DNA of 30,917 bases from Acidobacteriota bacterium (GCA_013694635.1 JACDCA010000764.1:1-30917); one strand, 5' to 3'. Shown: positions 1 to 30,917, counted from the stretch's first letter. Notes: generated from the sequence alone by a model not told the origin. Numbers and translations are program-made.

Positions 1-311
1 TCACGGCACACCCCGACATCAAGGCGGTGTTTGCCACCAACGACCAGATGGCGCTCGGCGCGGTGGAGGCGATCGCGGCGAGAAGGCCGCAGGGCGCGAT
101 TGCGATCATCGGTTTCGACGCCACCGCGGAAGCTGTCCAGGCCATCCTCGAAGGGCGGATGTCGGCCAGCGTGGCGCAGCGTCCTTTCGAGATGGGACGC
201 CGGAGTGTCGAAGCCGCTCTTGCCCTTCTCGACGGAAAGGCCGTGGACCCGCGGATCGACACCGGCACGGAACTGATCACCGCCGAAAACGCCGCGCGCT
301 TCAAGAAATGA
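1..311 (+). CDS. Sugar ABC transporter substrate-binding protein, RbsB/periplasmic binding protein type I (C-terminal part; 5' truncated by window)
   Basis: The frame is open from the window edge (TAHPDIKAVFATNDQMALGAVEAI...IIGFDATAEAVQAILEGRMSASVAQRPFEMG). The FATNDxMALGA, GFD and ASVAQxP motifs are typical of RbsB-like proteins. The TGA stop overlaps the next ATG (ATGA, 308-311). Confidence 0.88.
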   Translation, partial: TAHPDIKAVFATNDQMALGAVEAIAARRPQGAIAIIGFDATAEAVQAILEGRMSASVAQRPFEMGRRSVEAALALLDGKAVDPRIDTGTELITAENAARFKK

Positions 312-1639
312 CGGCATTCACGGTCGCCGCCATCCTTTTCCTCGCCGCCGGTGCCCACCCGTCATCCCGGCTCGATCATCGTTTCATCCTGCCGGTGGGC
401 GGCGAGGCGGTCGCCTCCATCACCGCGGGATGCGACCGGTGTGACTGGGGCCTGGCGGGTCGCGAAGCGGTGGTCGTGCGCGTGACGGTCGACGGGGACT
501 ATTCACAACATCTCATTCTCGCCCGCGGTGCGTCACCGGCCTCGTATCGACTCATGCTGGGAAGGCTGGCCGCCGGACCGCACCGGCTGACACTGGAACG
601 CGACACCGAGCGATCGTCGAGAGATGCCGGAGCCATCAAGGTCCAGGCCCTCTCGGTGCATGCCTTTCGTGAAGGCACGCCGGAGCATGAATGGCTGTCT
701 CATGCGCCGTTTCTCTACGCGCGGCCCGGCACCGTCGAACGGTTCAGCGACCTCCCGGTGATGATGTGGGTCGAGCGCACGCCACCGCCCGCGGATGACT
801 TCCGATACACGGTCATCTTCACGCACGAGGACGGCGGTACGCCGACCGATCGGCTGATGGCGACGTGGGGCCGCACCACCGACATCGAGTTCGTCTACTC
901 GACGGGGCGCGCGCCTGACGGCGTGATCCGTGAGGAGATCCAGGGGAAGAATCACGAGATTCTTCCGTTTCGCGGCAGGCGTTTCGGCGCTCACCCGCTG
1001 CTCTGGGTCGCGACCGACAACAACATGGTCGCCGACAGCGGCCCCGAGACGATCAGGTTCGGACTCGCGCCGGAGCTCGTGTCTCTCGAGAACGTCTCGC
1101 GCGAAGCGGTGATGGACGCCAATCCCTGGACCTATTCGGTGATGTCGGCGGAGCTTCGCCGGGAGGGACGCCTTGACCCGGCCGCGAAGCCGGGGTCCGC
1201 GAAGGTGCCTGACTCGCGCCGTTTCGCCTATCTCGAAGGCTGCGGCGAGCTCGATCGCGCCACCGCCGCCTTTGACGTGGCAATCCGCGCAGGCGGCGGC
1301 GCAACCGAATGGCACGCCACGGATCGCGGGGACCCGCGCTTCCGCATTGCGCGCAGCGGGTGCTTCCGCGCCGCGGTGCCGCTGCCGCCGGGCACGACCG
1401 TGGGGATGATCACCGGGGTACGGATGCGCGCCTTCACGCGACCGCCGCGCGAGGATGAGCCGGCACTTCCACCTGGCACCGGTCGCGTCACGCTGCAGAG
1501 GCTGAACGGCGTCTTCATGCTGGACCAGCGGTATCGTCCCGGGACACCGCGGTTGCGCTGGGCGGGGACTATCGAGACGCGCGGCGAGGCGGAGGCTGTG
1601 CGGGTACCAGTTCCACCGTCCGCAGGCCGGACCCGCTGA
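308..1639 (+). CDS. Hypothetical secreted protein (443 aa), function unknown
   Basis: ATGA coupling to the upstream gene. N-terminal hydrophobic signal-like segment (MTAFTVAAILFLAAGA). Globular-looking composition with a motif-rich core (APFLY...YTVIFTHEDGGT...WGRTTDIE). No family recognised. Confidence 0.8.
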   Translation: MTAFTVAAILFLAAGAHPSSRLDHRFILPVGGEAVASITAGCDRCDWGLAGREAVVVRVTVDGDYSQHLILARGASPASYRLMLGRLAAGPHRLTLERDTERSSRDAGAIKVQALSVHAFREGTPEHEWLSHAPFLYARPGTVERFSDLPVMMWVERTPPPADDFRYTVIFTHEDGGTPTDRLMATWGRTTDIEFVYSTGRAPDGVIREEIQGKNHEILPFRGRRFGAHPLLWVATDNNMVADSGPETIRFGLAPELVSLENVSREAVMDANPWTYSVMSAELRREGRLDPAAKPGSAKVPDSRRFAYLEGCGELDRATAAFDVAIRAGGGATEWHATDRGDPRFRIARSGCFRAAVPLPPGTTVGMITGVRMRAFTRPPREDEPALPPGTGRVTLQRLNGVFMLDQRYRPGTPRLRWAGTIETRGEAEAVRVPVPPSAGRTR

Positions 1640-4310
1640 TCTCGAGGGTGGCCGAGCCGTTCGATACCGTCAGCGGCCGCTGCGCCTCCTCGAGCAGATT
1701 CAGTTCATTCGCCTGGAGAATGCCGCCAGGAATGCGCAGCTCGCCGGACGCGCCGCTGACTGATGGGTTGAACAGCCGTACGGTAAGCGATTCGCGCACG
1801 TCCGTTTTTTTCAGCGCGCTGAGCACGACCCCACCCTCGCTTGCGGTGATCGACAGCATGTCCGCCCTGGGCGCGAGCCGCTGGCCTTTCGCGATCCCCC
1901 CGGTCTGACCCTCCGGCACGTCCGCGATCGCCATGCGAGCGGGGGCCAGGAACGCCGATGCGCCGGCGTAGAGCTCCACTGGCGCTGGTGCCTTCTCCAG
2001 CGGCTCGAACGCGAGGCTGAACGCGTGACTGCCTATGCATTGCGCACCGGGCGCTGCCAGCCCCGGGCCCGCGTGCCCGTGTGGGCGGGTGGCGAGGTCG
2101 TCGCGTGACAGATCGCCGACACACCGGAGCAGCGTTACCGCAATCTGCGCCGGTTCCTCCATCAGCACTTCGTACTCGGTCAGCCCCTGCACGTACACCG
2201 CGGCCCCGCCTACCGCGGCGCAGGCGACGAAGGACTGCATGGGAGCGGAGGTGACCGGCACTTCCGTGCGGATCTGCGCGGGGGCATCGCGCCGCGTGGG
2301 ACGCGCAATCACGCCAAACGCGGTGTCGGACACGGCTTCGGAGGGCTCCCGCAGCCCTGCCGGGAACGCGATCCGCAGGCGGTGGTCCCGAGCGCCATTC
2401 TCGATCCGTACGTCCCACTGCGCGCGCCGGGAGCCGGCGTCCAGCGTGATCTCGACGGTCACCGGTACGCCGATGACGTCGCTGGCGCGGCGGCGCCGGT
2501 CCGTCGTTGCCGCGGCCGGCAGCGGCAGCGTACCGGTGATACGCAGGCGGCCCCGCAACGGTCCGGCGTGGACCTCGGTCACCGACACCTGCTGGAGATC
2601 CGCGCTCTCGACGAGGCGATCGGTCGCTGGCGGCGAGTAGTTGTACTCGTCGCCCACATCCCCCTGGTCGATGAGCGCACCGCAGTGACCGTACGTTTTC
2701 CCGCTGCGCTTGTCGACGATCGTTGCCGTCCCGTCGTCGGCGACCGTGATGCGCAGGGTGTCGTTCTCCAGCGATCGTGCGGCGGTCGTGACGAGCGCCG
2801 CCGTCTGCAACCGTGACGGCGCGCCGATGTGGAGGTCGAGAGATGCATAGCCGCAGCCCGGCAGCTCGACCAGCGCGGCAAACCGGACACGCTTCGCATG
2901 AAGCGCCCAGGGCGTATCGAGCCTGCTCCTGATCCAGCTGATGACATCTGTTTCCTCGAGAATCTGCAGCGGCACACTGGTGCCGTCCGGCAGCGAGGCC
3001 GCCGTGATCGTCGAGCCTTCCGGATGAAAGACGACGGGCGCGTCGAGCGCCTCGGCGTCCATGTGACGATGGGGTTCGGCGTTGCCGAAGGGCAGATCGA
3101 CGGAGCCTTCGACCACGCCGACGCGCGGATGTCCGGACGTCTGGAAGAACACCGCGCGCACCCTGTCTGTGGCCGCGGGAGCGACGCGCCGCGCGAGCGA
3201 CACCGCCGCGCGCTCGATGAGGTCGTCCGCCACCTGCCCGGCCCTGGCAAAGCGTGACATGTTCTCGTCATGCACTTCGTCGATGCTGCAGCCGCAGATG
3301 CTGTCGTGCGGATGGTTCTGGAGCAACACCTTCCAGGCGTATTGAAGCGCTGCCGCGGGATAGCGGTCGCCGAGCATCCACGCCCAGGTGCTGAGCGGCT
3401 CCCCCCACCGCTCCAGGGCGTTCTGGACCCGCGCATTCGCCTGTTTCAGATATGTGCGCGCCGACAGCACCCCCGGCAGAAGCGGCGCGTATTGCTCACC
3501 GCCACGCAGCTCTCCCCGGATCACCTCGAGCGACGACGCGTCGCCGGCGGCGGCGGTCCGGACCGCGTGGACGTATGCAGGGAGTGTTGACTGGCGGATC
3601 GTGTGAGACCGCTGCCGCAGCGCTGTGACGAGTGCCGGAATCGTCTCCTGCGGCTCGACGTGATCGAGGCCGTTCATGAGCAGCACGACACCGTATTTCG
3701 TGCGCGACGCTTCGCGTTCGATCGCGGCTTCGGTGCGCTGTACCATCTGGTCGGGAACCAGCGCGACGCGCGTGGCGTTGCAGTAACCCTCGGGTGGCAG
3801 GTGCATCATCAGGACCCGTGAGCCGTCAGGCGCCTCCCACCAGTACTCCGCCCGCGGCCCGCCGAACCCGCGCCAGAGGATCGCGTTGTCGAGGCCGAAC
3901 TGCCGGAGGATCTGCGGCATCTGCCCCACGTGGCCGAACAGATCCGGCAGATAGCCGACCGGCATGGATTCACCGAAGGACCGCGCGACGGCGTGGCCGA
4001 GCGCGAGGTTCCGCACCAGCGATTCGCCGCTCACGAGAAACTCGTCGGGCATGACGTACCACGGGCCGACGAGCAGCCGACCCGACCGGACCAGCTCGCG
4101 AAGGTCCTCGGCCCGCTCGGGCCGGATCTCCAGGTAATCCTCGAGCACGATCGTCTGCCCGTCGAGATGGAAGTACGTATAGCCGCTGTCGGCGTGAAGC
4201 ATGTCGATGACACGGTCCACGAGGTCGACGAGGCGGAGCCGGAACTGTTCCCGCGTCAGATACCACTCGCGGTCCCAGTGCGTATGTGAAATGAGGTGGA
4301 CGTCGATCAT
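1569..4310 (-). CDS. Glycoside hydrolase family 38 alpha-mannosidase (MngB-like), cytoplasmic, about 913 aa
   Basis: The true start MIDVHLISHTHWDREWY is at 4310, with an ATGA overlap with the upstream permease stop. Motifs: Zn-binding HxHWD, LDGQT, GPWY, nucleophile GYLPDLFG and HPHDSICG. No signal peptide. Confidence 0.95.
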   Translation of the reverse strand: MIDVHLISHTHWDREWYLTREQFRLRLVDLVDRVIDMLHADSGYTYFHLDGQTIVLEDYLEIRPERAEDLRELVRSGRLLVGPWYVMPDEFLVSGESLVRNLALGHAVARSFGESMPVGYLPDLFGHVGQMPQILRQFGLDNAILWRGFGGPRAEYWWEAPDGSRVLMMHLPPEGYCNATRVALVPDQMVQRTEAAIEREASRTKYGVVLLMNGLDHVEPQETIPALVTALRQRSHTIRQSTLPAYVHAVRTAAAGDASSLEVIRGELRGGEQYAPLLPGVLSARTYLKQANARVQNALERWGEPLSTWAWMLGDRYPAAALQYAWKVLLQNHPHDSICGCSIDEVHDENMSRFARAGQVADDLIERAAVSLARRVAPAATDRVRAVFFQTSGHPRVGVVEGSVDLPFGNAEPHRHMDAEALDAPVVFHPEGSTITAASLPDGTSVPLQILEETDVISWIRSRLDTPWALHAKRVRFAALVELPGCGYASLDLHIGAPSRLQTAALVTTAARSLENDTLRITVADDGTATIVDKRSGKTYGHCGALIDQGDVGDEYNYSPPATDRLVESADLQQVSVTEVHAGPLRGRLRITGTLPLPAAATTDRRRRASDVIGVPVTVEITLDAGSRRAQWDVRIENGARDHRLRIAFPAGLREPSEAVSDTAFGVIARPTRRDAPAQIRTEVPVTSAPMQSFVACAAVGGAAVYVQGLTEYEVLMEEPAQIAVTLLRCVGDLSRDDLATRPHGHAGPGLAAPGAQCIGSHAFSLAFEPLEKAPAPVELYAGASAFLAPARMAIADVPEGQTGGIAKGQRLAPRADMLSITASEGGVVLSALKKTDVRESLTVRLFNPSVSGASGELRIPGGILQANELNLLEEAQRPLTVSNGSATLEISGSGLRTVELVPAQPPPRRASR

Positions 4311-5143
4311 CCTTTTACCGCCCCGGCCGTGAGGCCGGCGATGAAATACCGCTGCAGCAGAACGAACGCCGCCACCACCGGCAGCAGCCCGACAATGCTC
4401 GCCGCGGCAACAATATGCCATTCCGTCTCGTACGCCCCCTGGAGGCTGAAGAGACCGACCGGCACCGTGAAGCGTTCCTGGGCGTCCAGCAGCACGAGCG
4501 CCAGCGAGAATTCGGCCCAGTACGACGCGAGATTGAAGATCGCGGCAGCGGCGAGGCCGGGGCCGGCCAGCGGCAGTGCAATCGCCCGAAACGTGAGCCA
4601 GCGTCCCGCGCCGTCCACGCGTGCGGCGTCGAAGAGCGCCGGAGGGAGTGCGTCGAAGAACGATTTCATCAGCCAGATCGTGAGCGGCACCTGCAGGGAC
4701 GCATAGACGAGGACCAGTCCCGCATGGGTGTCGACGAGGCCGAGGCGCTGCATCAGGCCGTAGATAGGCACCAGCAATACGACCGGCGACAGCATCTGCA
4801 TCCCGAGCAGGGCGCCGAGGATCGGTCCGCGGGCGCGAAATCGCTCGCGTGAGAGCACGAACGCCGCCGGCAGCGAGACGGCAAGCGTGAGCAGCGTCGA
4901 CAGACCCGCAACCTTGAAACTGTTCCACAGGTACCACGGCACCTGCGTCCGCAGGAGTGCAAAGACGTAGTTGGCCGTCGTCGGATCGTCAGGAATCAGC
5001 CGTGGCGGGTACTGGTAAACGGCCGACTTCTCCTTGAACGACAGCGACAGGAGCCACAACTGCGGCACGAGAAACACGAGCGTGATCGCGACCAGCGCGG
5101 CGACGTACGGCCAGCGCGATCCATACCGCGCGCTGCCGCTCAC
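4307..5143 (-). CDS. Carbohydrate ABC transporter permease (CUT1, MalG-type), about 278 aa
   Basis: GTG start at 5143 overlaps the upstream stop (GTGA). About six TM segments, EAA loop FFDALPPALFDAARVDGAG, and a typical C-terminus LQRYFIAGLTAGAVKG. Confidence 0.93.
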   Translation of the reverse strand: MSGSARYGSRWPYVAALVAITLVFLVPQLWLLSLSFKEKSAVYQYPPRLIPDDPTTANYVFALLRTQVPWYLWNSFKVAGLSTLLTLAVSLPAAFVLSRERFRARGPILGALLGMQMLSPVVLLVPIYGLMQRLGLVDTHAGLVLVYASLQVPLTIWLMKSFFDALPPALFDAARVDGAGRWLTFRAIALPLAGPGLAAAAIFNLASYWAEFSLALVLLDAQERFTVPVGLFSLQGAYETEWHIVAAASIVGLLPVVAAFVLLQRYFIAGLTAGAVKG

Positions 5144-7446
5144 GCGGTCACCCGCGCGGGTCGTGCCGGGCGCCCGGCGGCGAGCCGCGTCGCGAACCAG
5201 ATCAGCGGCACGTTGAACGCCAGCATGACCACGGCCGTCGCGGCCGCCATTCCGGCATCGAGGTCGTAGAAGGCGAGCCGGTACATGAACAGCGATGCGA
5301 CCTCGGTCTGCCGTGCGGGGCCGCCGCCGGTGAGCGGCAGAATCAGATCGAAGGTATTGAAGGTGTAGAGCGTCACGAGCACGGCGTTGAGCGCGATCAC
5401 CGGCGCAACTGCGGGCAGCACGACCACGCGCAGCCGCTGCGACATCGAGGCCCCCTCGAGATCGGCGGCTTCGTGCAGCTCGCGGGGAATCCGCTGGAGT
5501 CCCGCGTACTGCAGCACCATGCTGAATGCACACCCGCGCCACGTGTTCGCGATGATGAGCGAGACGACAGCGAACGACCCGGTCGAGAGCAGAGGCAACG
5601 GGCCGACGCCGAGCGCCGTGAACCAGTAGTTCACGAGCCCGGAGCGATTCTCCATCAGCAGAATCTTCCAGAGCACGCCGACGAGGACGCCCGGGACCAC
5701 CCATGCGCTGACGACGGCCACGCGGGCCGCAAGACCGCCCGGCACGCGCCTTCGCCTCGCGCCGTCCATCAGGTAGGCCATGCCGAAGCCGAGACCCAGT
5801 TGCAGCACGACGCTGGCCACGACGAAGAGGCACGTGATCCCCATCATCGGCCAGAAGTGCGGATCGCGGAAAAGCTCCGTGAACGACTCGAGGGTATAGC
5901 CCGCGCCGCGCTGCCCTGTGGTCGCGCGGGTGAACGCCAGCCGGATCAGCTCGAAGATCGGATAGAGCACGAAGAGCCCGGCGAGCGCCGCCGCGGGCGC
6001 GAGCCAGGCGCGGGGCATGGGGCCTCGACCTGGGAACAACACCCAGGCAATCAGACCCGCGGCGAGCACGATGGGCACCCAGGCGAGGAGGTCGAGTCCA
6101 GCGCGGCGTGCCGGCGCGGCGTTTCGCCGCTCCCACGCCTGCAGCACGTTGGCATACGCCGCGTCTACCGCGGCTTCGGGGGTGCGATCACCCGATATCG
6201 CGTAGCCAATGGCCAGCTGCAACTCCGTCGAGATCGCCGGATACATCGGGACGGCCGGACGAGCCTGGCCGCTCGCGACGATTTCGCCGAACCGCGCGTA
6301 CCACCCTTCCCGGAATGTCGGGAACTGCTGATAGACGCTTCGGCGTACCGGCAGGTGCCCCGTTGCTTCGCTGATGCGTGCGGCATTGGCCGGAGCCTCG
6401 ACGCGCCGAATCAACTCGACAGCCGCGCGGCGCCGTTCCGGATCCGTCGCAAACACCACCCAGATCCAGCCACCGGTTCCGGTCGATGAGGTCGCGGGAT
6501 CGCGCTGCGGAATCGGGGCGACGTCCCACTTCGCGAACTCCTCTGCGCTGAGATTGGCCTTCAGGTCCGCCAGTTGCCAGTTGCCGCCGAGGAACATCGC
6601 CACGTCGCCGGCGGCGGCAGCGGACGTCAGCTGCTGGTAGTCCATTGACGCAAGCACCGATCGTGGTGACGCGCCGGTGCGGATCGTGTCGCGCAGGAAG
6701 GCGAGCACGTTGACCATGCGCTGGCGGTCTGCCCCTTCGCCGAACACCGGCCGCCCCGCGCCGTCCACGAGCGTCCCCCCCTGCGCCCAGAACATCGCGA
6801 GATGATCGAAGACCGTCGCCTCCCAACGGCCCGCGTTGTAGAGATAGCCGGCGATATTCTGCTCGCGCGAGATCCGCGGCGCGATCTCCAGCAGTTCCGC
6901 CCACGAACGCGGCGCCCGTGGAACAAGATCCTTGCGGTAATACAGCACGCGACAGTCGGTTTCGTGCCACAGGCCGTAGACGTGGCCCGCCGGATCAGAC
7001 AGGGTCGAGATCGTAAACGGAAGGAAGTCCTGACGGTCCTCCGCCGGCCAGTAGTCGTCGAGCGGCTGCACTGCGCCGCTGTCGAGAAAGAGCGGAAGCC
7101 AGAAGCTGTCGATCGACGCGACGTCGGGCAGTCGGCCGGCGGACGCGGCGAGCAGCAGCTTGGCCTTGTGCTGCTCGAGCGCAGGCATCACCGAGACGCG
7201 CAGGTTGACGTCGGGCGTCGCGCGCGCCCAGTCCGAGAACACATCCGTGAAGACCTGCGCGATCGCCGGCCGGGAGGCGAGATGCGAGTAATCCTGCTGG
7301 GCCCACACGGTCAGCGTCGTCCGCGCTTCGGGATTTCCCACGCGGATGGGCGTGACGAGAGGCGGCTGTGCGGAAGCGCTCCGCGCGAGTCCGCACAGCA
7401 GCAGCGCGATCGGGAAGACGATCCGAAGGTGGCGGAGCACGCTCAC
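5140..7446 (-). CDS. Fusion protein: N-terminal extracellular solute-binding domain (family 1) + C-terminal MalF-type ABC permease, about 768 aa
   Basis: GTG at 7446 overlaps the PHP stop (GTGA). Signal peptide (LRIVFPIALLLCGLARSASA-Q), SBP motifs (GRLPDVASID, VLYYRKDL, PRSWAEL, MFLGGNW, GTGGW), then TM helices and EAA loop GLQRIPRELHEAADLEGAS, all in one uninterrupted frame. Confidence 0.9.
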   Translation of the reverse strand: MSVLRHLRIVFPIALLLCGLARSASAQPPLVTPIRVGNPEARTTLTVWAQQDYSHLASRPAIAQVFTDVFSDWARATPDVNLRVSVMPALEQHKAKLLLAASAGRLPDVASIDSFWLPLFLDSGAVQPLDDYWPAEDRQDFLPFTISTLSDPAGHVYGLWHETDCRVLYYRKDLVPRAPRSWAELLEIAPRISREQNIAGYLYNAGRWEATVFDHLAMFWAQGGTLVDGAGRPVFGEGADRQRMVNVLAFLRDTIRTGASPRSVLASMDYQQLTSAAAAGDVAMFLGGNWQLADLKANLSAEEFAKWDVAPIPQRDPATSSTGTGGWIWVVFATDPERRRAAVELIRRVEAPANAARISEATGHLPVRRSVYQQFPTFREGWYARFGEIVASGQARPAVPMYPAISTELQLAIGYAISGDRTPEAAVDAAYANVLQAWERRNAAPARRAGLDLLAWVPIVLAAGLIAWVLFPGRGPMPRAWLAPAAALAGLFVLYPIFELIRLAFTRATTGQRGAGYTLESFTELFRDPHFWPMMGITCLFVVASVVLQLGLGFGMAYLMDGARRRRVPGGLAARVAVVSAWVVPGVLVGVLWKILLMENRSGLVNYWFTALGVGPLPLLSTGSFAVVSLIIANTWRGCAFSMVLQYAGLQRIPRELHEAADLEGASMSQRLRVVVLPAVAPVIALNAVLVTLYTFNTFDLILPLTGGGPARQTEVASLFMYRLAFYDLDAGMAAATAVVMLAFNVPLIWFATRLAAGRPARPARVTA

Positions 7447-8840
7447 TTGACGGTCACGTAAACCGGGTTCGTGAGCGCCACGATCGTCGTGCCGCTCCGC
7501 ACGGCCACGCGAAGATATCCGTTTCCGCCGGCGCGGCGGACACGAACGGTTCCGTCTGCCGCCGGATGAGTCGTGGCGCTGTCTCCGTTCCACGAGAGCT
7601 CCACCGTGCAGCTCGCCGGGCACGCTCCGAGGCCGGGACTCGTGAAAGCGGGGATCGAAACGTGGACGTCGAGCTCCGCACCAGGCGAAATCTCGAGCGT
7701 CTCGCCGGTTCCGGCTGTACGTCCGGCGGACGTCACGGTCACCACCGGCGGTGGGGACGCGGGATCACGCATCATGACGACCGCGCCCGCGGCCACGGCA
7801 TCGAGGATCGCCGGTTCCGTCAAGGCCTCGGCGAATACGCGCACGCTGCCGGCGCCGATGTACCCAGGCGCGCGGTGCCAGTCGCTCGAGGCCACGCCGG
7901 TGACCCGCCTGCCTTTCGCGAGCAGCTTGTCCCATATGGCGATCGCCCCTGGCTGCGGCCCGAGGCCGCCGTTCCAGACTTCGATCGCATCGACGCGTTC
8001 CGGTGTGGGCTGCTTCCAGTCACACGCGTCGCAGTCGGCCACCGGGTGATTGATCGAGAACAGCGCACCGCGTGCATGGGCCGCGGCCGCAACGTCGATC
8101 ATGCGCGTGTCGTTTGCAGCCATCCGGAAGTCGAGCCAGTCGCCCGGTTTCAAGCCCCACACGTTCGCATGTCCGCCGGGCGTCGTAATCTCTTCTCCAA
8201 CGATGTGCAGCGGCTTGCGGTCAGGGTCCGGCGGGCGGGCAACAGCGTGTGTGGTGTTGTTGTGATCCGTGATGGCCACGAAGTCGAGGCCGGAGGCGCG
8301 CGCCATCTCCAGCACCTGCGCCGGCTCGAAGCTGCCGTCGCTGTGGACGGTGTGCAGGTGAAGGTCACCCGCGTACCAGCGTCGCACGGTGGTTGCGCCG
8401 GTCCCCGTCGTGATCCGAAGCGTGACGTCGATCCCCTGCGCCGCCACCTTGTACAGTCCGAGGATGACGTGCCAGCGTCCGGCCGGGAGTGGCCCCGCGC
8501 GATATCCCGGAGAGGCCGTCCCGGGCGTGAGCACGATCTCCGTGCGTGCGCCGCCGCTCCAGCCGCGCAACGCGCGCGATCCAAAATCGATCGAACCCGG
8601 CTCCATGAGCCCGAGGTCCACGGCGTTTGCGCCCCCCGCCTTGTCGTATGCCTGCTCGATCCTGACGGAGGTGGCATGGGCAGGAACATCGAACGGCACG
8701 TATTGGTAGCGCCCCGAACGGCGATCCTCAGGTGTGTAGCGGCGCGTGATCTCGATCGTTTCGCCGGGCGGGGCCCCTGCACCGGCCTCCAGACCGGAAC
8801 AGAACAGGACCATCAGGAGCACCTGGAGCGCGCGTGACAT
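7443..8840 (-). CDS. Secreted PHP-domain metallohydrolase, CehA/McbA family (paralog 1), about 465 aa
   Basis: Start MSRALQVLLMVLFCSG at 8840 looks like a signal peptide. PHP metal motifs GDLHLHTVHSDG, DFVAITDHN, GEEITTPGGH, SINHP, IEVWNG and SSDWH, preceded by an N-terminal beta-sandwich-like region. Confidence 0.88.
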   Translation of the reverse strand: MSRALQVLLMVLFCSGLEAGAGAPPGETIEITRRYTPEDRRSGRYQYVPFDVPAHATSVRIEQAYDKAGGANAVDLGLMEPGSIDFGSRALRGWSGGARTEIVLTPGTASPGYRAGPLPAGRWHVILGLYKVAAQGIDVTLRITTGTGATTVRRWYAGDLHLHTVHSDGSFEPAQVLEMARASGLDFVAITDHNNTTHAVARPPDPDRKPLHIVGEEITTPGGHANVWGLKPGDWLDFRMAANDTRMIDVAAAAHARGALFSINHPVADCDACDWKQPTPERVDAIEVWNGGLGPQPGAIAIWDKLLAKGRRVTGVASSDWHRAPGYIGAGSVRVFAEALTEPAILDAVAAGAVVMMRDPASPPPVVTVTSAGRTAGTGETLEISPGAELDVHVSIPAFTSPGLGACPASCTVELSWNGDSATTHPAADGTVRVRRAGGNGYLRVAVRSGTTIVALTNPVYVTVK

Positions 8841-8850
8841 GCGGGCGGCA

Positions 8851-8858
8851 ATTATAAT
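8851..8858. promoter_or_regulatory. Palindromic ATTATAAT giving a perfect -10 hexamer (TATAAT) on both strands
   Basis: Lies in a 24-bp gap between divergent starts (8840 minus, 8865 plus). The + strand TATAAT at 8853-8858 is 6 nt before ATG 8865. The - strand TATAAT at 8856-8851 is 10 nt before ATG 8840. It is an AT-only octamer in very GC-rich DNA. Confidence 0.65.
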
Positions 8859-8864
8859 CGGCGA

Positions 8865-9731: not shown

Positions 9732-9736
9732 TAGCT
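9710..9736. repeat. Short 7-bp tandem repeat (TCAGCCG TCAGCTC TCAGCTG ATAGCT) containing an 18-bp near-perfect palindrome
   Basis: AGCT-C-TCAGCTGA-T-AGCT at 9719-9736 has one mismatched pair. It spans the stop of the DUF2090 gene and abuts the iolD stop. Confidence 0.5.
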
Positions 9737-11607: not shown

Positions 11608-11640
11608 ATCAGTCGTTTGTTGGCGCGAATCTGCGCTGGT

Positions 11641-12486: not shown

Positions 12487-12525
12487 GGAGAAACGGCGAC
12501 AACGCGACACAGACCGCGAGCGCAG

Positions 12526-12555
12526 AGTATCGAGGCTTGCCCGCGCAGGTGTCAA
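12526..12555 (-). promoter_or_regulatory. Putative sigma70 promoter for iolB-iolD
   Basis: Minus strand TTGACA (12555-12550), an 18-nt spacer, then GATACT (12531-12526), about 40 nt upstream of the iolB ATG. Confidence 0.55.
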
Positions 12556-12568
12556 GGCGCCGCACCGA

Positions 12569-12577: not shown

Positions 12578-12586
12578 CCCCTGCCG

Positions 12587-23322: not shown

Positions 23323-24614
23323 GCCGACTGCCTCGACGGCGTCCACTGCAGAAAGTTGTCGGCGAGGAGGCGACCGACGTCGCGTTCGATCTCGGCAACA
23401 GTCACCGGGCGTCCATTCTCGACGACACGCACGTACTGGTCCGCAAGGGCGAGGGAGATTTCGCGCCTCGCGTGTGGCCACTTGTAGAGCAGTTGCTCGA
23501 GCACTCGCGCGTCGGAATGCTGGGCGATGAAGCTCGTGCCGAGCATTTCGAGCCGCTCGCGCGTGATCTCGGAAACGATCGACGGATTGTTGAGAAACCA
23601 CCAGCAGCCAAACGGCATCAGGTTCGAAAACTTCCGCGCCGCCACGCACAGGTCATGCTGGTTCTCCCGCGACAGCATCGTCACCAGGAACCGGTTGTCA
23701 GGATGCTCGGCACACATCCGCTGGACAGCGGTCACGTCAGCGCGGCCCAGTCCGTCGCCCGCGTCGTGGAGCTCGGGGTTCACGGCGCGGCGCACGCCGA
23801 TCATCATCGCGAAGGGCAGGCCATGATCGCGGCAGGCGGGCAGGACGACATCGCGAATGAGCAGCCCCCGCGGTCCGTCGCCAGGCCATGCGAAGTCATC
23901 GGGTAGCGAGACCGCCAGGTACAGCGGAGCCATGCGTGCGATCCACGCATCAATGAAACGGCGAGCCTGAACGACGGTTGCGGCGTCCGGCTCCGCAGCG
24001 GCGGCGTATCCTGCGGCGATCAGTCGCTTGCGACCCTCTGGCCAGTCGTTCAACAGCGTGTCGAGACGAAGGGCGGTGTGGAAGCGGTCGTCGAGCTCGG
24101 GTCCCTCGTCCCACACGCGAACTTCTCGCGTGTCGAAAGGGTCGTTGGTCATGACGACCCCCCCGACGCGCGCGCGATCGAACACCCGGGCCAGGTGATC
24201 CGATGGCGTGACGTCGCGAAAGAACTCACGGGCCTCTGTCAGATTCGGCGCCGACGGGTCGAGACCGAGCGCCGAGAGGACGGCGACTACTCCGCACGTG
24301 GCTTCGGAGAGCGGGGTGTTGCGGACGAACAGCGCGTCCCACACAAGGTCGGCCTGCGCGGGTTTCGTCAGACGGCGAAACTGCTCCGGGCGCATCTCGA
24401 CCGCGCGCATCAACTCGGCGACCAGGTAGTGGTACGTGAGCAGGTCGTCGATGCCCGACCTGGTCAACTCGGTGAACGCAGGCGGGAACAGGTGCGTGTG
24501 CATGTCGAAGACCGCCATCTCCTGCACCACTCTCGCGGTGTGGAGGCGCACGTCCTCGGCCCCGTGAAGAGGCTGCTGCGGCACCGCGGTTCGGTTCTCG
24601 ACGATCTCAGTCAC
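23319..24614 (-). CDS. uxaC: Uronate (glucuronate/galacturonate) isomerase, Bacillus halodurans BH0493-type, about 431 aa
   Basis: [56 protein letters not shown] and [14 protein letters not shown]. Start GTG 24614 (alternative ATG 24635). Confidence 0.92.
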
Positions 24615-25848
24615 GCATGAATGGCTCCCGGTCATCTGCAGGATCGGCCCAGCGATCGTTGGGGACGAGCGGCGCCCATCCCGGACGGCCCGGATCCTGA
24701 TCGTACGGATACGGGCCGAGCTCCCGGTACAGCTCGGCGTACTGCGCGAGCTTGTCGCGGTCCAGCCGCACGCCCAGCCCGGGTCCCTCGGGCACACGGA
24801 TGCTTCCGCTGTCGTAGGTGAACTTTCCCCCCTCGATGATGTCGTCGGTGAGGTGGTGGTAATGCGCGTCGGCGGCAAACGACAGATTCGGGATCACTGC
24901 GCCGAGGTGCAGCATGGTGGCGAGCTGGATCCCGAGCTCGCCGGAGGAGTGAACAGCGACCCCGAGCTGGAAGGTCTCACAGACACCGGCCGCCTTGACG
25001 CACGCCCGGATGCCGCCCCAGAAGGTCGTATCGAGCAGAATGACATCGACGGCGCGGTGCAGCGCGTTGGCGGCGAGCTGCTCGAAGTTCACCACCACCG
25101 TGTTGGTGGCGAGCGGCAGCCGCAGCTTCTCCCGCGCATGCCGCATCCCGGTCAGCCCGAACACCGGATCCTCGAGGTAGTCGTTGTCGAGATCCTCGAT
25201 CGCGCGGCCGAACCGCACCGCCTGTTCGGTCGTCCAGACGGCGTTCGGGTCGAATCGGAACGTGTCGCCTGGCAGTGCAGCGGCGAGGGCGCGGTAGCAT
25301 TCGAGCTCGTAGTCGGGCCGGAACACCCCGCCTTTCATCTTGTGCGAGCGGAAGCCGTACTGCTCCTTCAGCTCCAGTGCGTGTGCGACGAGCTGCTCCA
25401 CTGTCCGGACGACACCCCGCCCGTTCGCTGATGCGTACCGGAAAAACAAGTACGAGGCGAACGGCACGCGATCGCGAACGCGCCCGCCAAGAATGTCGGA
25501 GACCGGGACGCCCCATGCCTGACCGAGCAGGTCGAGACAGGCAAACTCCAGCGCGGCGACGACCTGCGTCCTGTTGTTGTAGAGCGACGCGGTCGGATTG
25601 GCGAGCAGGAAGCGCATCTCTTCGAGACGCGCCGGATCACGCCCGAGCAGGCATGCCTTCAACGACTGCACCACCGCGACCGCTGACTCGCCGCCACCGC
25701 CCATCTCTCCGAGGCCGATGAGACCCGTGTCGGTCTCGATCTCCACGATCGTGCGGACGAACCGGCCCCAATGGCATCCGTTCGCGTGGCGCAGCGGCGC
25801 CTCGAGCGGAACGGTCACCGTCGTCGCGCGAACATCAGTGATCTTCAT
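24607..25848 (-). CDS. Enolase-superfamily acid-sugar dehydratase, glucarate dehydratase-like subgroup, about 413 aa
   Basis: ATG 25848 overlaps the upstream stop (ATGA). KMKGG, DPN, EDP, ATN and His motifs follow the GlucD layout. HSSGE and DAHY differ from the HSNNH and DTHW of canonical GudD. Confidence 0.88.
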
Positions 25849-28805
25849 GGAGTTCTGTCGGGGAGCTTGGCCGGGTCGACCGTCCGCGGCAGCTCTTTTT
25901 CCACGAGCCCGATCCGCCGCGCGGCGGAATCCCGGGCCGAGCGCCAATAGCGAAGGACGTAATCCATCGCGGACTCTTCCACGGCTCTGCTGTCGGAACC
26001 GCCGACGATCAGCCATGTCGCGTCACCGCCCGCGGCGGGTTCGACGCGCTGCACGAAGCTGCCGGCGGCGGGGAGCCTATCGGCGATCCGCGCCATCAGC
26101 GCGTGCGACTTGGGGGTGCCGACGAGAATGAGCGTACCTGGCTCGACCGCCGCGGGTAGATCGTCCAGTTGATAGATGTCCACCGGGCGTCCGCTCGCGC
26201 TCTCGAGGGTGCTGGCGAGCACATAGGCGGCTTCCATTTCGAGCACGGGCGCATTCTGCCCGTACACCACGCGAATCGGTTTCGCGTAATCGAAGTCGAC
26301 GGTTCCGGCGGCCAGACCCGGATATGCGACAAGGGATCGCGCCTTTGAATCGAACACAGGTCGCGCGGCCAATCGTGCTTCGTTCCACACGTACCGCAGC
26401 GAACCGTCAGCCCGTTGCAGACGCAGGAACCAATGATAGAAGCCCGGCGTTGCTCCGCGGGTGGAAAGCGCGACAGTGAACTTGTGGGTCCCGCCGGGAG
26501 CCACGTCGGCGACAGCCGGGGAGGTGAGCGTCCCGCGAAGGTCTGACGGACCTTCCACGGTCGCTCGGACACGTTCGGCGCTCGTGCCGCGGTTTGTCAG
26601 AGTCAGGATCGCGGTCCCCCGGCCACGTGCGTCCAGGGATGTAACGGTGTGTGACGCGTCGAGTTGGCGGATCGGATCTTCCGGCGCCACGAAGCGGTGC
26701 ATCAGCCGCATCAGCTCGAATGCTTCCGGCTTCGGGCGGCGGCTGAGGCGCAGCGGCTCGTAATGACGGATGCCCGTGCGGCCCAGCCGCGGATTGACGG
26801 TGAGCGTTTCCTGGAACTGGAACTGATGGAACTCGCCGATCGCGCGGCTCTCGAGCGCCCCACCGATGATGTCGGGATAGACCGTGGCCCGCGCTTCCGG
26901 CGTCATCCGCGTCAACCCACGCCAGTTCCACTCGGTGATCACGGCTGGTTTCCCCGCCTTCGAAGCGTAGTTCGCCATCGCGAGCGCGAACCCGCGGCCG
27001 CTCGGAATGGCGTCGAGGCTGTCGATGTAGGCGTGCCCGCCGACGCGATCGAACTTCACGCCGAGCTGCTCGAGTCTCGTGAAGATGCCGGTGTTCGTAT
27101 GTGCCGTGAGGTGGACCGGCACATCGGGCGCGACAGACTTGACCGCGTCGTAGACCGCGTTCCAGTAGCGGGGACGATCCTGTGGAATGCCCCAGATCAG
27201 GATCTCGTTTTCCAGTTCGACCGATTCGACGACATCGCGGTAGCGCGAGACCATGGCAGCCATTTGTGCCGGCGTGAAGCGCGCGTCAGAAGGACTCAGC
27301 ATCGCGCGAAGTTTCAGATGCCGCAGCTCGCTGAAAAGAAAATCGAGGTACTCGCGCTGGACGCGGGCGTCCAGTTGCGCGATCACGTCGAGATAGTGGA
27401 GGCGGATAACGTGGAAGCCCATCGCTTTCGCGATGCGCAGGTCACGCCGGATCGCGTCGGCAAACAGCGGCCACTGCTGCACCGTGTCGGCCGCCAGCGG
27501 CCAATAGCCCTCGCTGTCCATCCCGGGCAGCTTCAGCCGGTCGAAGTTTTCGCCGAGAGTGGAGTACGGAAAGTAGCTGGTGCCGAATCGCACATGCGGG
27601 ACGCCGAAGGAGAGAGTCACCTCCGCATCACGACGGTCTTGCCGCCAGTACCCCGTGTACGCGAGGAATTGCTCGGTCGCACGTACGTCGGAGATGGGCG
27701 CAGGTTCGAATGCGAGTCTCGATCCGAAGCTGACGCTCTCGCCGGCCGGCGGCAGGATGTTGTCGACGAGGCGATCCCGATACGACTGGATGTTCGTCCG
27801 TGCGATCTCCGTAATCCAGAAGAGCGCCTCCGGCGCGGCCTGCGCTTCCGAGCCGAGCTGCGGAATATTCGCCCCGGTGTAGCGCGGCTGGCGGAAGCGA
27901 TTCTCGGACGAGTCCTGAAGGATAGTGAACGAGTCCGCAAAGTCGTTCATCCACGCGACCGATGCTCCTGCAGTTGTGCGCAGCGTCAGCCAGTCGACGC
28001 CACGCTGGACGAAGTGATGCCGTCCCTCGCCGGCGCGAAACGGGGTGCGGCCGGTCGCTGCCAGTGGAGCGATGCGGTTGTCGTAGCAGATCCGGCGCTC
28101 GGCGGCGTCGGCGGCGTGCGTCAACCGGCTCACGACCGCCGCGTACACGCCCGATGTGCGAGCGTCAGGCTCGGTGGTCACGCGCGTGGAGAGGTCGAGA
28201 AATCCCTCACGGTAGGCGCGCAGTGTGAGGGCGACGGACAGGCCGTGGCGGGAGCCTTTTGCCGTCCACGTATCGAAAACGTGCCCCTGTACCGTGCGCG
28301 TGAACTCGAGTGGCAACGCCTCGAAGGTGGGTGCGAGATCCTGGGGTGGAGTCGCGGTGCTTGTTTTCGGCGCGCTCGCGGCGGCGGACAGATGAACACT
28401 CCAGGAGAGGTTGCCGATCGGCTGTCCATCAAAGGACACGCGGACACCATCGTCGATCGTGTCAATCACGAGCCGCCGGTCCGGCTCGGAACGCCGGCTT
28501 GCCGGCAGCAGAGCCAAACGCCGCGATGCGTTCGCGTTGACACTACCGATCAAGACGACTCCGCTATCCACCGGCTGGACGGCAGCCCCTTCCGCCATCA
28601 AGTGTTCGGCAGTGTCACCGGTGATCCCGGAGACCTCCATCGGCATGCGGATGGCGAACGGCTGGTTGTTGACGAGCACGATCGCCGACGGGCGCCTACC
28701 ACCGTCGTCCGCGCCGGTCGGGGCCATCCAGACCCAGGCTGCGGCGAGCGCGATGCCCCAGCAACCTACGCCACCCGCGAGAGACTTAGAACGAGAAGCG
28801 CGCAC
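25845..28805 (-). CDS. Large secreted multidomain protein with a clan GH-A-like TIM barrel (unclassified glycoside hydrolase), about 986 aa
   Basis: GTG 28805 gives a signal peptide ([32 protein letters not shown]). Central RFGTSYFP...[16 protein letters not shown]...ELENE...GGHAY...VITEW pattern, followed by an Ig-like domain and a C-terminal alpha/beta domain. Confidence 0.82.
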
Positions 28806-30917
28806 CGAACCGGATCTCGCGTTCGCCGAACGAGGAGCTGATGCGACCGAAGGTGCCGGCGTTGGCAAAGCTGCCGCTCGGATTGCGATAGTGCGGCGTG
28901 TTCGTGAGGTTGAACGCCGACGCGTTGACCATCAGGCGCTTGTCTCCGCGCAGCCGGAAGGTCCGTGACAGCGTCATGTTGTAGTTGACATACCCGGGGC
29001 CCCGGACGCTGTTGCGACCCGCGTTCCCGAGAGTACCGGGAGCGGGCTCGACGAAGACGCTGGTATCGAACCAGAGCTCGGTGGGACCCGTTCCCCCCAG
29101 AATGGCAGGCTGGCCGGTGACATTCGGCCGGTTGGTGAAACCCGTACCCTGTGGCATGTTGGCGGTCAGCCGAACGCCCGTGATGTCGACCGGGGACCCT
29201 GAGCGCGCGGCGAACACACCGTTGATGTTCCACCCGCCGAGTACCGCCGCCGCGATCCCGTCCCGCAGGAAGCGTCCATCGCGCCCGAACGGCAGCGGCG
29301 TCACGTGGCTGACCACCAGGTTGTGGCGGCGATCGAAACCCGAGGGTCCACGATTGGCCTCGAGATCCAGCGGATTCTGGACCGTGAAGGCGGCCGAGTA
29401 ATCTTCTGACTTGCTCAGCGTGTACGCCGCAGTGATCCGCCCCGCGCTGCCAAGCCGTCGCTCCACCTTCGACTGAAACGCGTGATAGGACGAGCCGAGG
29501 ATGAAATCCGACAGGAGCGTGTCGGCGGTGCGTCCAAACCGGATTGCGAGTGGACGATTCGCCTGGGTGGCACCCGGACCGGCCGCGTTCAGGTTTCTCG
29601 TGCCCGGCAGCCGTCTGCCAAGCGAGCCGACATAGGACGCATCGACCACGAAGCCGAAAAGATCGCGCTGCACCGTTGCGTTGAACGACTGCACATACCC
29701 GCGCTTCGGATTTTCGTTGATCACGGGCAGAACGACGTTGACCGGAGGGGAGGTGACGACGCCGGTGGTGACATCGACGATCGGCACCGTTGGAATCCCT
29801 GTCGAAAGGTTGCCCGCCGGCAGGAAGCTGTTGGCCCCCGCCACGCTGAGTTGCACCTGAGCCGGATACCCGACGCCCGCCAGCGTGTTGATCCCGAGGG
29901 GGATGTAGCCGATGCCGTAACCGCCGCGCAGCACCGTCTTGTCGTCAAGCCTGTAGGCGGCGCCGAGCCGCGGCGCGACGTTGTCGTATTCGGTCCTCAC
30001 GTTCAGCCGCTTCGACACCGACCCGTAACCGCCAACCAGGATCTCATTGGTCTCCGGCAGGTACCGCGACTGGTCGCCCGCATTCGGAACCGTCGCAAAT
30101 GGATAGATCTCGTAGCGCACACCGTAATTGAGCGTCAGGCGGCTGGTCGGCTGCCAGCGATCCTGGACGAAGAAGAAATACTGCTGCAGCTCGTACCCGC
30201 TCGACTGGTTGATCTGAGTACGCGCCATCGACTGTGGCAGGCCCAGCAGGAATGCCGCAACGGCATTCGCCGACGACGAGGTCGGTCCACCGCTGAGCGA
30301 CGTGGGGCCGGTCGTGAACGTGAACGTCCCACGAGGATCGCCGGCTGACGCCTGGCCCTTGTCGAGCCCGAGGTTCCGCAGGTCCATACCGAACCGGACC
30401 GTGTGCTTCCCCTTCTGCATCGTCCAGTTATTGACGACGTTGTAGCTGGTTTCGATGATTCTGAACGGCAAGGTTCCGGCGGCTCCGAGAAAGGCGTAGC
30501 CGCTGATAGCGATGCGGGAGATTCCGTTGGTGAAGACGTCACCCGTGTTGATGCCCGGGATACCCAACCGTGTCGCCAGATCGGCTTCCGTCGGCGACGC
30601 GCCCTCGATGCGTACGCGCACGAAGCCGGCGCGGAATTCAGAGACGATGGTCGGAGAAAAGGCGTGCGTGAGATTGAGCGAGCCGCTCTGATTTCGGGCC
30701 TCGCCGATGGCCGCCGTCGCGCCGCCGCTCGTCGATGGTCCGCCGAGGACGCCGAAGGAGGGGGCGTCGGCGGTGTCGGCCTGGAAATAGCTGTAGCGGA
30801 CGAAGCCCTGCGTCCGGTTGCCGAAGGAGTGATTCACCTTGACGTCGCCGGAGTGGCGGTCCTGGACGAACTGGCCTGTGGCTTCGTAGTTCAAGGTGGC
30901 ACCAGGCCCTGTGGGGT
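28786..30917 (-). CDS. TonB-dependent receptor, Oar-like (C-terminal about 710 aa; 5' part outside the window)
   Basis: The frame is open to the window edge. FFVQDRWQPTSRLTLNYGVRYE, NVAPRLGAAY, SFNATVQRDL, YTLSKS, DRRH, NAGRN..RGPG..N and a C-terminal Phe (IRFGARFSF). Confidence 0.93.
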   Translation of the reverse strand, partial: PTGPGATLNYEATGQFVQDRHSGDVKVNHSFGNRTQGFVRYSYFQADTADAPSFGVLGGPSTSGGATAAIGEARNQSGSLNLTHAFSPTIVSEFRAGFVRVRIEGASPTEADLATRLGIPGINTGDVFTNGISRIAISGYAFLGAAGTLPFRIIETSYNVVNNWTMQKGKHTVRFGMDLRNLGLDKGQASAGDPRGTFTFTTGPTSLSGGPTSSSANAVAAFLLGLPQSMARTQINQSSGYELQQYFFFVQDRWQPTSRLTLNYGVRYEIYPFATVPNAGDQSRYLPETNEILVGGYGSVSKRLNVRTEYDNVAPRLGAAYRLDDKTVLRGGYGIGYIPLGINTLAGVGYPAQVQLSVAGANSFLPAGNLSTGIPTVPIVDVTTGVVTSPPVNVVLPVINENPKRGYVQSFNATVQRDLFGFVVDASYVGSLGRRLPGTRNLNAAGPGATQANRPLAIRFGRTADTLLSDFILGSSYHAFQSKVERRLGSAGRITAAYTLSKSEDYSAAFTVQNPLDLEANRGPSGFDRRHNLVVSHVTPLPFGRDGRFLRDGIAAAVLGGWNINGVFAARSGSPVDITGVRLTANMPQGTGFTNRPNVTGQPAILGGTGPTELWFDTSVFVEPAPGTLGNAGRNSVRGPGYVNYNMTLSRTFRLRGDKRLMVNASAFNLTNTPHYRNPSGSFANAGTFGRISSSFGEREIRFGARFSF

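Follow-up and report, generated by a model that had tools for sequence, protein, structure and literature searches.

The stretch of DNA analysed here (the window) comprises all of the 30,917-bp contig C607, which belongs to a Vicinamibacterales metagenome-assembled genome (MAG; 3.7 Mb, 783 contigs, 91% complete). It consists of a conserved left block of ca. 17 kb (1-17040), in which genes for inositol catabolism (iol) are interleaved with genes for exported PHP-domain proteins, sugar importers and an alpha-mannosidase, and a right-hand operon of ca. 14 kb of the uronate or pectin type (Table 1). The function of the left block is the subject of this study. Homologues of the window proteins are labelled Vicinamibacterales or Acidobacteriota. 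Since the GC content of the window is high (67%), genes were called from codon-position GC in combination with protein family hits. A minus-strand open reading frame (ORF) at 13387-14724, called from third-position GC over the iolE region, was discarded as spurious because a Pfam hit was obtained on the plus strand. The Rfam search returned zero hits, a scan for promoters and terminators gave no signal above chance, and no RNA-seq run was found to contain this DNA.

Table 1 Genes and other features of the window, with positions counted from its first nucleotide.
Feature	Position	Strand	Evidence
CUT2 binding protein, C-terminal 102 aa (ribose/inositol-type)	3-311	+	Peripla_BP_4 PF13407, E 2.7e-20
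unk1, exported 443-aa protein	308-1639	+	three-domain predicted fold, no Pfam family
GH38 alpha-mannosidase, cytoplasmic, MngB-like bacterial clade	1569-4310	-	Pfam GH38 domains: PF01074 E 4.4e-37, PF09261 E 4.1e-13, PF07748 E 3.9e-13, PF17677 E 1.3e-06
CUT1 permease 2 (MalG-like)	4307-5143	-	NCBIfam MalG, E 7.6e-39
CUT1 solute-binding protein fused to MalF-like permease	5140-7446	-	Pfam SBP_bac_1/8 and BPD_transp_1, single ORF
PHP1, exported CehA/McbA-type PHP protein	7443-8840	-	NF038032, 200 bits (cut-off 80)
Divergent PHP1/DUF2090 gap, 24 bp, palindrome ATTATAAT	8841-8864	.	sequence reading
DUF2090 stand-alone protein	8865-9731	+	Pfam DUF2090, E 4.4e-44
iolD	9736-11607	-	TIGR04377, 913 bits (cut-off 715)
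iolB	11641-12486	-	TIGR04378, 292 bits (cut-off 205)
iolC, kinase-only form	12587-13546	+	TIGR04382, 381 bits (cut-off 300)
Divergent IolE-family TIM-barrel protein	13543-14463	+	PF01261 (AP_endonuc_2), E 2.4e-25
Zn-dependent medium-chain dehydrogenase/reductase (Zn-ADH)	14477-15508	+	Pfam ADH_N and ADH_zinc_N
PHP2, second exported CehA/McbA-type PHP protein	15565-17040	-	NF038032, 257 bits (cut-off 80)
Uronate/pectin-type operon, eight genes	17207-30915	-	family hits and refined starts
PaeX-like esterase	17207-18145	-	family hit
GH2	18150-21248	-	family hit
Major facilitator superfamily transporter	21245-22528	-	family hit
Short-chain dehydrogenase/reductase (SDR), KduD-like	22525-23322	-	family hit
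Bh0493-type uronate isomerase, 399 aa	23319-24518	-	PDB 2q08, E 1.6e-132, residues 3-392
Enolase-superfamily dehydratase	24607-25848	-	glucarate-dehydratase-like, 162 bits (cut-off 829)
Clan GH-A-like 1007-aa protein	25845-28805	-	ENE and ITEW motifs around residues 470-700
TonB receptor	28786 to beyond 30915	-	family hit

The products of iolD, iolB and iolC passed the cut-offs of their equivalog models. The longest ORF of iolB reaches 12624, and the ATG at 12486 is its likely start; a promoter-like site lies upstream at 12555-12526, in a scan that was overall no better than chance. The only NCBIfam match of the IolE-like protein was TIGR04379 (187 bits, under the cut-off of 290), and its nearest solved structures were IolE 3cny (E 6.5e-27) and 9zmu. 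The DUF2090 protein covers positions 360-585, the aldolase half, of the kinase/aldolase fusion model NF047869, and it is probably a 5-dehydro-2-deoxyphosphogluconate aldolase that substitutes for IolJ. The left block shares the IolD, IolB and IolC equivalogs with canonical iol loci (iolABCDEG and J of Bacillus subtilis; idhA-iolCDEB of Caulobacter), and the divergent IolE-family protein and the probable DUF2090 aldolase are encoded beside them. It differs from them in that IolC and DUF2090 are split, and in that the pathway is interleaved with exported PHP proteins, a CUT1 importer, a GH38 enzyme and a protein with a fold resembling that of Nep1-like proteins (NLPs). IolG and IolA over cut-off, which belong to the canonical route, were not found in the genome, and Zn-ADH occupies the position expected for the dehydrogenase. 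Zn-ADH scored 177 bits with the IolM model, under the cut-off of 450, and it retains its place after iolE in the same-genus genomes G006, G003, G001 and G009; IolG is absent from this genus. More distant relatives carry an IolG-like gene close to the cut-off (L077:2968-4056; TIGR04380, 351.8 bits vs 355) beside the gene of a CUT2 binding protein. From its position, Zn-ADH is a candidate replacement for the missing IolG, and the pair looks like a non-orthologous replacement of the first step of the pathway.

PHP1, the fusion of solute-binding protein (SBP) and permease, permease 2 and GH38 form a run in which stop and start codons overlap throughout, permease 2 (4307-5143) overlapping with both of its neighbours. 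PHP1 is the first gene of this operon, and the start codons of PHP1 and the divergent DUF2090 gene are separated by the 24-bp gap alone; as read from the sequence, its palindrome ATTATAAT would supply a -10 box on either strand, with near-leaderless transcripts. The fusion protein comprises, in one frame, a signal peptide, the binding protein, an extra transmembrane helix and the MalF-like permease. It was intact over residues about 30-755 in 41 of 41 related Vicinamibacteria loci, and it is therefore a lineage-wide design and not an assembly error. The nearest solved structures of the CUT1 binding protein bind di- or oligosaccharides. With the MalK-like ATPase encoded on contig C762 of the same genome, which is 72% identical to the product of the ATPase gene beside unk1 in G006, all the parts of a CUT1 importer were found: a family-1 binding protein, two BPD_transp_1 permeases and a MalK-type ATPase.

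The GH38 protein has no signal peptide and is the sole GH38 enzyme of the genome. Its best NCBIfam model was mannosylglycerate hydrolase (MngB, NF007331; 536 bits vs a cut-off of 1138), and its nearest solved structures were the Enterococcus and Streptococcus enzymes (3lvt and 2wyh). Like Escherichia coli MngB and Streptococcus pyogenes SpGH38 (PDB 2wyh), it is a cytoplasmic GH38 enzyme encoded beside an importer. It differs from MngB in not being an MngB equivalog and in being associated with ATP-binding cassette (ABC) import instead of a phosphotransferase system, and from both enzymes in its context of inositol catabolism and an exported phosphoesterase instead of glycerate or N-glycan genes. 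In several relatives, a gene for a GH63 MGH1-like protein, of which the best model was glucosylglycerate hydrolase, is located directly upstream of PHP1 (L074 10824-19342, in G055; L028, L027, L046, L051, L054 and L079). GH63 as a general replacement for GH38 was considered; this holds in G055, where GH63 is the sole glycosidase of the operon, and is ruled out in G014, G017 and G163, where both are present. The GH38 and GH63 families include hydrolases of small 2-O-alpha-glycosides with polyol-like aglycones. A heteroside such as mannosyl-inositol is therefore favoured over N-glycan fragments as the substrate. With PHP1 at the head of the operon, an exported phosphoesterase step would precede a di-/oligosaccharide-type importer and a cytoplasmic alpha-mannosidase.

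The left end of the window lies within the CUT2 binding-protein gene. The last 294 bp of C762 match window positions 1-294 at 97.6%, and the break is an assembly split, the imperfect 294-bp overlap probably resulting from strain heterogeneity within this gene. C762 carries the remainder of the CUT2 operon (ATPase, permease and binding protein) and the divergent gene of the MalK-like ATPase. The CUT2 binding protein is 82% identical to that of G003, and its stop codon overlaps with the start of unk1 (ATGA). Since IolG adjoins it in relatives, a role of this binding protein in inositol uptake is suggested, and a ribose-type CUT2 ABC importer also stands beside the iol genes of Caulobacter (ibpA-iatAP; PMC2597717). 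In unk1-anchored metagenome contigs, an operon of PfkB kinase, unk1, CUT2 ATPase, permease, binding protein and IolG genes recurs. The PfkB kinase at its head (L128, L131, L134, L140, L153 and L163; L076:18421-19458) is distinct from iolC; it scored 124 bits with the ribokinase model and 102 bits with the iolC model, both under cut-off, and the best match in the MAG, on contig C407, is 53% identical. The kinase may act on mannose, inositol or ribose.

Neither Pfam nor NCBIfam gave any match to unk1, NPP1 included, on either strand of the region at E values up to 10, and no relative and no NLP emerged when the PDB was searched by sequence and by profile. Its family has at least 1694 members, mostly from Vicinamibacterales. 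The AlphaFold2 model (pLDDT 86.6) contains a CBM6/35/36-like domain, an NLP-like middle domain and a PLAT/C2-like domain. The last of these (Z 8.0-8.6) is similar to the domains by which lipoxygenases, pancreatic lipase and clostridial alpha-toxin bind membranes, and the CBM-like domain found matches at Z about 5. When the whole model was submitted to Foldseek, only the CBM-like domain was matched, and the NLP match required a model of the middle domain alone. With this domain, VIA-align returned the NLPs 3st1 (Z 8.5) and 9wsc (Z 8.2), the next match being at 3.3, and NLPs were the top 12 PDB and top 13 Swiss-Prot hits of Foldseek (probability up to 1.0); actinoporins and fungal lectins ranked far lower, as expected for this fold group. 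The invariant residues of the family lie mostly within the middle domain. In the alignment, the GHRHDWE heptapeptide is not conserved in unk1 but reads GRTTDIE, with G, D and E kept at the same spacing. NLPs bind the sugar head group of glycosyl inositol phosphorylceramides (GIPCs) via an acidic Mg2+ site (PMC6743777). Compared with NLP cytolysins (NLPPya, MpNEP2; Pfam NPP1), which are the only structures that the middle domain matches, unk1 lacks sequence similarity and an NPP1 hit, has TM-scores below 0.5, and has CBM-like and PLAT-like flanks in an ABC-importer operon. This arrangement suggests nutrient capture or hydrolysis, not toxicity.

The N-termini of PHP1 and PHP2 resemble signal peptides, and both proteins exceed the cut-off of the CehA/McbA domain model by a wide margin (Table 1). 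They are 31% identical, and the metal ligands H170, H172, D177, D212/H213, E239, H246, H285, D347 and H349 are invariant across the PHP1 and PHP2 clades. Eighteen of the 120 best PHP2 matches are 718-826 aa long. Such orthologues with an N-terminal GDPD/PI-PLC-like domain (PI-PLC, phosphatidylinositol-specific phospholipase C) have ca. 810 aa and 57-67% identity and occur in many Vicinamibacterales. The N-terminal extension of ca. 320 aa matched no window protein (six checked) and was GDPD/PI-PLC-like in the six tested: in one by ESM-atlas features (0.90) and by structure (TM-score 0.67-0.72 to GDPD_2 clusters), and by sub-threshold GDPD hits in all five scanned. The extension is thus modelled as a PLC-like/GDPD TIM barrel. 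In relatives, the fusion is encoded directly behind a TonB receptor, and the two genes form a unit of their own, in genomes without iolD and the CUT1 core, in L024 (G033:C78, 2994-7624) and L030 (6706-12454). This fusion and the family assignment suggest that the PHP proteins may act on inositol phosphates.

The conservation of the left block was examined in relatives: 40 were searched with PHP2 and their loci fetched, and 41 loci anchored on the SBP-permease fusion from one-genome-per-species contigs, 80 anchored on unk1 and 20 others were collected. The 41 loci are labelled Acidobacteriota, except for one labelled Bifidobacteriaceae that was taken as a mislabel. The arrangement PHP2-ZnADH-iolE-iolC, iolB, DUF2090, PHP1-SBP-permease-permease 2-GH38 and unk1 recurs in three genera of the family, namely that of the window (G006, G001 and G009) and those of G014 and G017. 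PHP2 stands beside iolC-iolE-ZnADH or iolD in four of four same-genus loci, and unk1 was found in every locus of the PHP2 search that was long enough to span its position. Of the SBP-anchored loci, 24 extend for 8 kb or more on each side (full-flank loci); permease 2 was present in all 24, GH38 in 20, PHP1 in 18, the CUT2 binding protein and an IolG-like gene in 19 each, unk1 in 13, GH63 in four and glpK in two; 20 had an iol gene, usually IolG, within 10 kb of the core, and none had any gene of the right-hand operon. In G072, which belongs to another family, iolD, iolE, iolB, a TonB receptor, MalK, CUT2, IolG, GH38, CUT1 and PHP1 lie within 30 kb. A TonB receptor is located inside the block in G006, G003, G072 and G055.

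Genome co-occurrence was evaluated in 151 genomes sampled evenly from the class, with iolD scored over its cut-off. iolD was present in 18 of the 19 genomes with the SBP-permease fusion and in seven of the 132 without it, and the single exception among the 19 is 84% complete. Within family f22, the corresponding figures were 7/8 and 1/31, over six genera. Genomes with unk1 had iolD in 20 of 26 cases, and in-frame stops were present in three of the remaining six. G003 retains iolD, iolB, iolC, iolE, Zn-ADH, DUF2090, unk1, the CUT2 importer and the TonB receptor; it has no PHP1, CUT1 or GH38, and its PHP2 is a pseudogene broken by frameshifts and stop codons (L022/L023, G003:C14 about 39082-40477; several frames, two in-frame TGA). 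The elements proposed to handle a phosphorylated glycoside have thus been lost together in G003. These results bear out what the initial annotation had claimed of the left half. Its iol core with an aldolase, its two exported PHP hydrolases, and its CUT1 importer and cytoplasmic GH38 in one coupled gene run are all present, and the functional tie of PHP, CUT1 and GH38 to inositol catabolism is upheld by synteny across genera and families and by the pairing of CUT1 with iolD. Findings beyond the initial annotation agree with this, namely the NLP-like and PLAT-like domains of unk1, the GDPD/PI-PLC-like fusion of PHP2 orthologues and the GH63 gene in the operon of some relatives; the NLP-like domain and the fusion in particular are clues to inositol lipids.

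The same data bear on the possibility, which we consider real though rather unlikely, that two salvage systems with separate substrates share a neighbourhood. The PHP proteins, CUT2, unk1 and the iol genes would then serve free inositol or inositol phosphates (phytate products or glycerophosphoinositol, GroPI), and CUT1 with GH38 or GH63 would serve small alpha-glycosides (mannosylglycerate, glucosylglycerate, glucosylglycerol or short alpha-mannosides). The best models of GH38 and GH63 are indeed mannosylglycerate and glucosylglycerate hydrolases, and yet none of the loci showed a glycerate kinase. The CUT1 binding protein is similar to disaccharide binders generally; its gene is, however, translationally coupled with GH38 to PHP1, and the exported phosphoesterase that this places before import would be needless for free osmolytes. 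While some core loci have glpFK and no iol gene, and unk1, CUT2 and IolG occur without CUT1 and GH38 in G003, G082, G076 and G122, nearly all CUT1-bearing genomes possess iolD, and the decay of PHP2 in G003 accompanies the loss of PHP1, CUT1 and GH38. 

Gene content, conserved synteny, genome co-occurrence, predicted folds and the domain fusion are direct observations, and in their light we hold it to be quite probable that the left block functions as a single unit linked to inositol. Window positions 1-17040 and C762 together most likely serve to salvage inositol head groups that are glycosylated and phosphorylated. That the substrate is a mannosylated phospho-inositol head group is put forward more tentatively, since this assignment is inferred. 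Likely sources are the mannosyl-inositol-phosphate of actinobacterial phosphatidylinositol mannosides (PIMs), fungal mannosyl inositol phosphorylceramide (MIPC) or GIPC, and the plain phosphoinositol of phosphatidylinositol (PI) or GroPI. The proposed mechanism is as follows. Head-group fragments would enter the periplasm, in relatives through the TonB receptor of the block, which in the MAG may lie beyond the contig end. There unk1, with its CBM-like, NLP-like and PLAT-like domains, may bind or present the glyco-inositol head group, and the exported PHP proteins would strip phosphate, PHP2 from inositol phosphate or from the products of a GDPD/PI-PLC-type cut, and PHP1 from mannosyl-inositol phosphate. 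CUT2 would import free inositol, and CUT1 with its tethered binding protein would import mannosyl-inositol, which the cytoplasmic GH38 would hydrolyse to mannose and inositol. A dehydrogenase (Zn-ADH in the MAG and IolG in relatives) would open the ring-cleavage route, and IolE, IolD, IolB, IolC and the DUF2090 protein would complete it. Viewed more broadly, the core of PHP1, CUT1 and GH38 or GH63 looks like a salvage module for alpha-glycosyl-polyol-phosphates, since some relatives combine it with glpK and a MIP channel and have zero iol genes; the neighbouring polyol genes may then indicate which polyol is used. The glpK/MIP-channel variants appear to be tied to glycerol, not inositol.

Several observations weigh against this proposal. 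Neither the window nor the genome, which is 91% complete, yielded an IolG over cut-off (best 157 bits vs 355, on another contig), nor was an orthologue of the IolG-like gene of relatives found in the genome; IolA (TIGR01722) was likewise not found over cut-off in either (best 283 bits vs 448.5). The MAG also yielded no orthologue of the TonB receptor that lies within the block of relatives, and tblastn with their GDPD-like domain detected no GDPD/PI-PLC domain in it. The initial description as a candidate complete system goes too far, because the genome yielded no IolG or IolA over cut-off, no phosphodiesterase and no glucuronidase. Assignment of the CUT2 binding protein as an IbpA-type inositol binder was attempted and left unconfirmed, since ribose-binding proteins matched better (E 5.8e-52) than IbpA (E 1.6e-28). 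CehA/McbA members of the PHP family are carbamate hydrolases, and the phosphoesterase activity of PHP1 and PHP2 is an assumption. The match of unk1 to NLPs is at fold level (TM-score 0.42-0.47 in the PDB and 0.35-0.48 in Swiss-Prot, root-mean-square deviation 5-8 Å, no sequence signal), and the most conserved loop of unk1 is poorly modelled. An iol gene is missing from four of the 24 full-flank loci, of which three have GH63 and two glpFK, and the core is accordingly not strictly inositol-specific. In most of the distant relatives, IolG is the sole iol gene next to the module, and the other genes of the pathway can be 1 Mb away, as is seen on the single contig of G055. Finally, the compared genomes are related, and the co-occurrence counts therefore overstate independence; the pattern nonetheless extends across families.

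A further point of this kind is G033, which has the TonB receptor and the GDPD-PHP2 fusion and lacks iolD and the CUT1 gene. Such a unit possibly fits phosphorus scavenging, by analogy with the Pus2 system of Flavobacterium. To grow with PI and GroPI as the source of phosphorus, F. johnsoniae needs PusCD1 and PusCD2 (each a TonB receptor and a lipoprotein) together with periplasmic enzymes encoded beside them, namely a PI-PLC, a calcineurin-like phosphatase similar to a fungal GIPC-PLC, and PhoA1, in which PhoA is fused to a GDPD_2-like domain (bioRxiv 10.64898/2026.09.03.749221). Extended to the whole block, this would mean that the PHP proteins and the TonB receptors of relatives acquire phosphorus from organophosphates and that their adjacency to iol and GH38 is of little mechanistic meaning. 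We judge this improbable. G033 and the locus of P0178, which has no iol genes nearby, agree with it, as does the demonstration that Pus1 and Pus2 supply phosphorus (bioRxiv 10.64898/2026.09.03.749221). Nevertheless, 18 of the 24 full-flank loci have PHP1 within the CUT1-GH38 operon, PHP2 keeps its iol neighbours in each of the four same-genus loci, the block contains neither a pho-type regulator nor Pst genes, and salvage of phosphorus and of carbon are compatible with each other.

As in Pus, the targets of the salvage system proposed here would be the head groups of inositol phospholipids (PI, GroPI, inositol monophosphate, and possibly GIPC-derived inositol phosphoglycans), although for the window locus this is deduced from its genes, and a TonB-dependent receptor would feed periplasmic, Sec-exported phosphodiesterases and phosphatases. 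PhoA1 of Pus2, with its GDPD_2-like and phosphomonoesterase parts, is paralleled by the Vicinamibacterales GDPD-like-PHP2 fusions behind a TonB receptor, which involve a different phosphatase superfamily. Pus has SusD-like lipoproteins, a classical PI-PLC, a calcineurin-like phosphatase and PhoA, whereas the window locus has PHP enzymes and no SusD, and its own genome is without a GDPD/PI-PLC domain. Pus was studied for phosphorus only, and the preprint of September 2026 (bioRxiv 10.64898/2026.09.03.749221) makes no mention of inositol catabolism, glycosidases, ABC importers, an inner-membrane sugar importer or Acidobacteria. The module of the window, in contrast, is connected with two sugar importers (CUT1 and CUT2), GH38 and the iol genes, which points to carbon use. 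By this analogy, the left block may be a variant of these very recently recognised systems for the utilisation of inositol lipids. In the literature, we found no described bacterial route for mannosyl-inositol or inositol phosphorylceramide head groups, and no precedent for GH38 with inositol, for PHP-type phytases or for Vicinamibacter with inositol.

The genes of the right-hand operon are tightly packed, overlapping or abutting one another. The isomerase, which had been taken for UxaC, gave no match to Pfam UxaC and aligns end to end with the Bh0493 uronate isomerase of Bacillus halodurans (PDB 2q08), from which it differs in its partners: an enolase-superfamily dehydratase and an SDR take the place of UxaA/UxaB or UxuA/UxuB. 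These three genes (22525-25848) constitute a non-canonical hexuronate route. The 1007-aa protein had no Pfam or NCBIfam match on either strand at E values up to 10, and its orthologues were found in only two of the 40 relatives, both of the same genus (G009 and G001) and on other contigs; in G009, the contig that carries the core of the operon has neither GH2 nor the esterase. Upstream of PHP2, G006 has housekeeping genes.

The initial annotation had regarded this operon as part of the same system as the left block. In its fullest form, this means that the whole 31-kb window is a single system for plant GIPC (Hex-GlcA-inositol-P-ceramide), in which the operon handles glucuronate. We consider this very unlikely. 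Although the operon abuts PHP2 on the same strand in the window contig, a 166-bp gap with a promoter-like site (17079-17052, again from the scan that did not exceed chance overall) separates the two, and none of its seven genes searched was found in the 41 SBP-anchored, 80 unk1-anchored or 20 other related loci, with the operon core present in only two of 40 relatives. Glucuronate is a constituent of GIPC and unk1 has an NLP-like fold, but no alpha-glucuronidase was found in the window and no glucuronidase in the genome, and the PaeX-like esterase, GH2 and galacturonate-type isomerase better fit pectin or another acidic glycan. Synteny has thus already largely refuted a single 31-kb system. 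Absence from all related inositol loci indicates that the operon is an independent uronate or pectin-type locus that abuts PHP2 by chance, and, judged by its distribution, it stands outside the inositol system. Of the neighbourhood initially envisaged, the PHP1-CUT1-GH38 core does recur near iol genes and the TonB-receptor uronate operon, although present in the window, is absent from the related inositol loci; the early caveat that the right half might be an independent locus proved well founded.

Soil holds much carbon and phosphorus in the form of inositol lipids (PI, PIM, MIPC and GIPC). How bacteria consume these lipids is just beginning to be understood; Pus was the first system to be characterised, and for phosphorus only. 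The salvage system proposed for the left block would extend this picture to Acidobacteriota, a phylum that ranks among the most abundant in soil and among the least cultured, to the head-group glycan and inositol carbon, and to other enzyme families (PHP, GH38/GH63 and the NLP-fold protein). Taken all together, the proposals would amount to an undescribed carbon pathway of Vicinamibacteria on glycosyl-inositol-phosphoryl head groups (MIPC/GIPC and PIM), in which an NLP-fold protein has been recruited from a toxin-type fold for capture or processing, the PHP proteins are inositol-phosphoglycan phosphatases, and the MngB-like GH38 is the first known mannosyl-inositol hydrolase; that every part of this conjunction holds is doubtful, and we offer it as a possibility. 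The locus provides testable functions for three large families of hypothetical or loosely named proteins, namely unk1 with its many Vicinamibacterales members, the exported CehA/McbA-type PHP proteins and the fused SBP-permease CUT1 importers.

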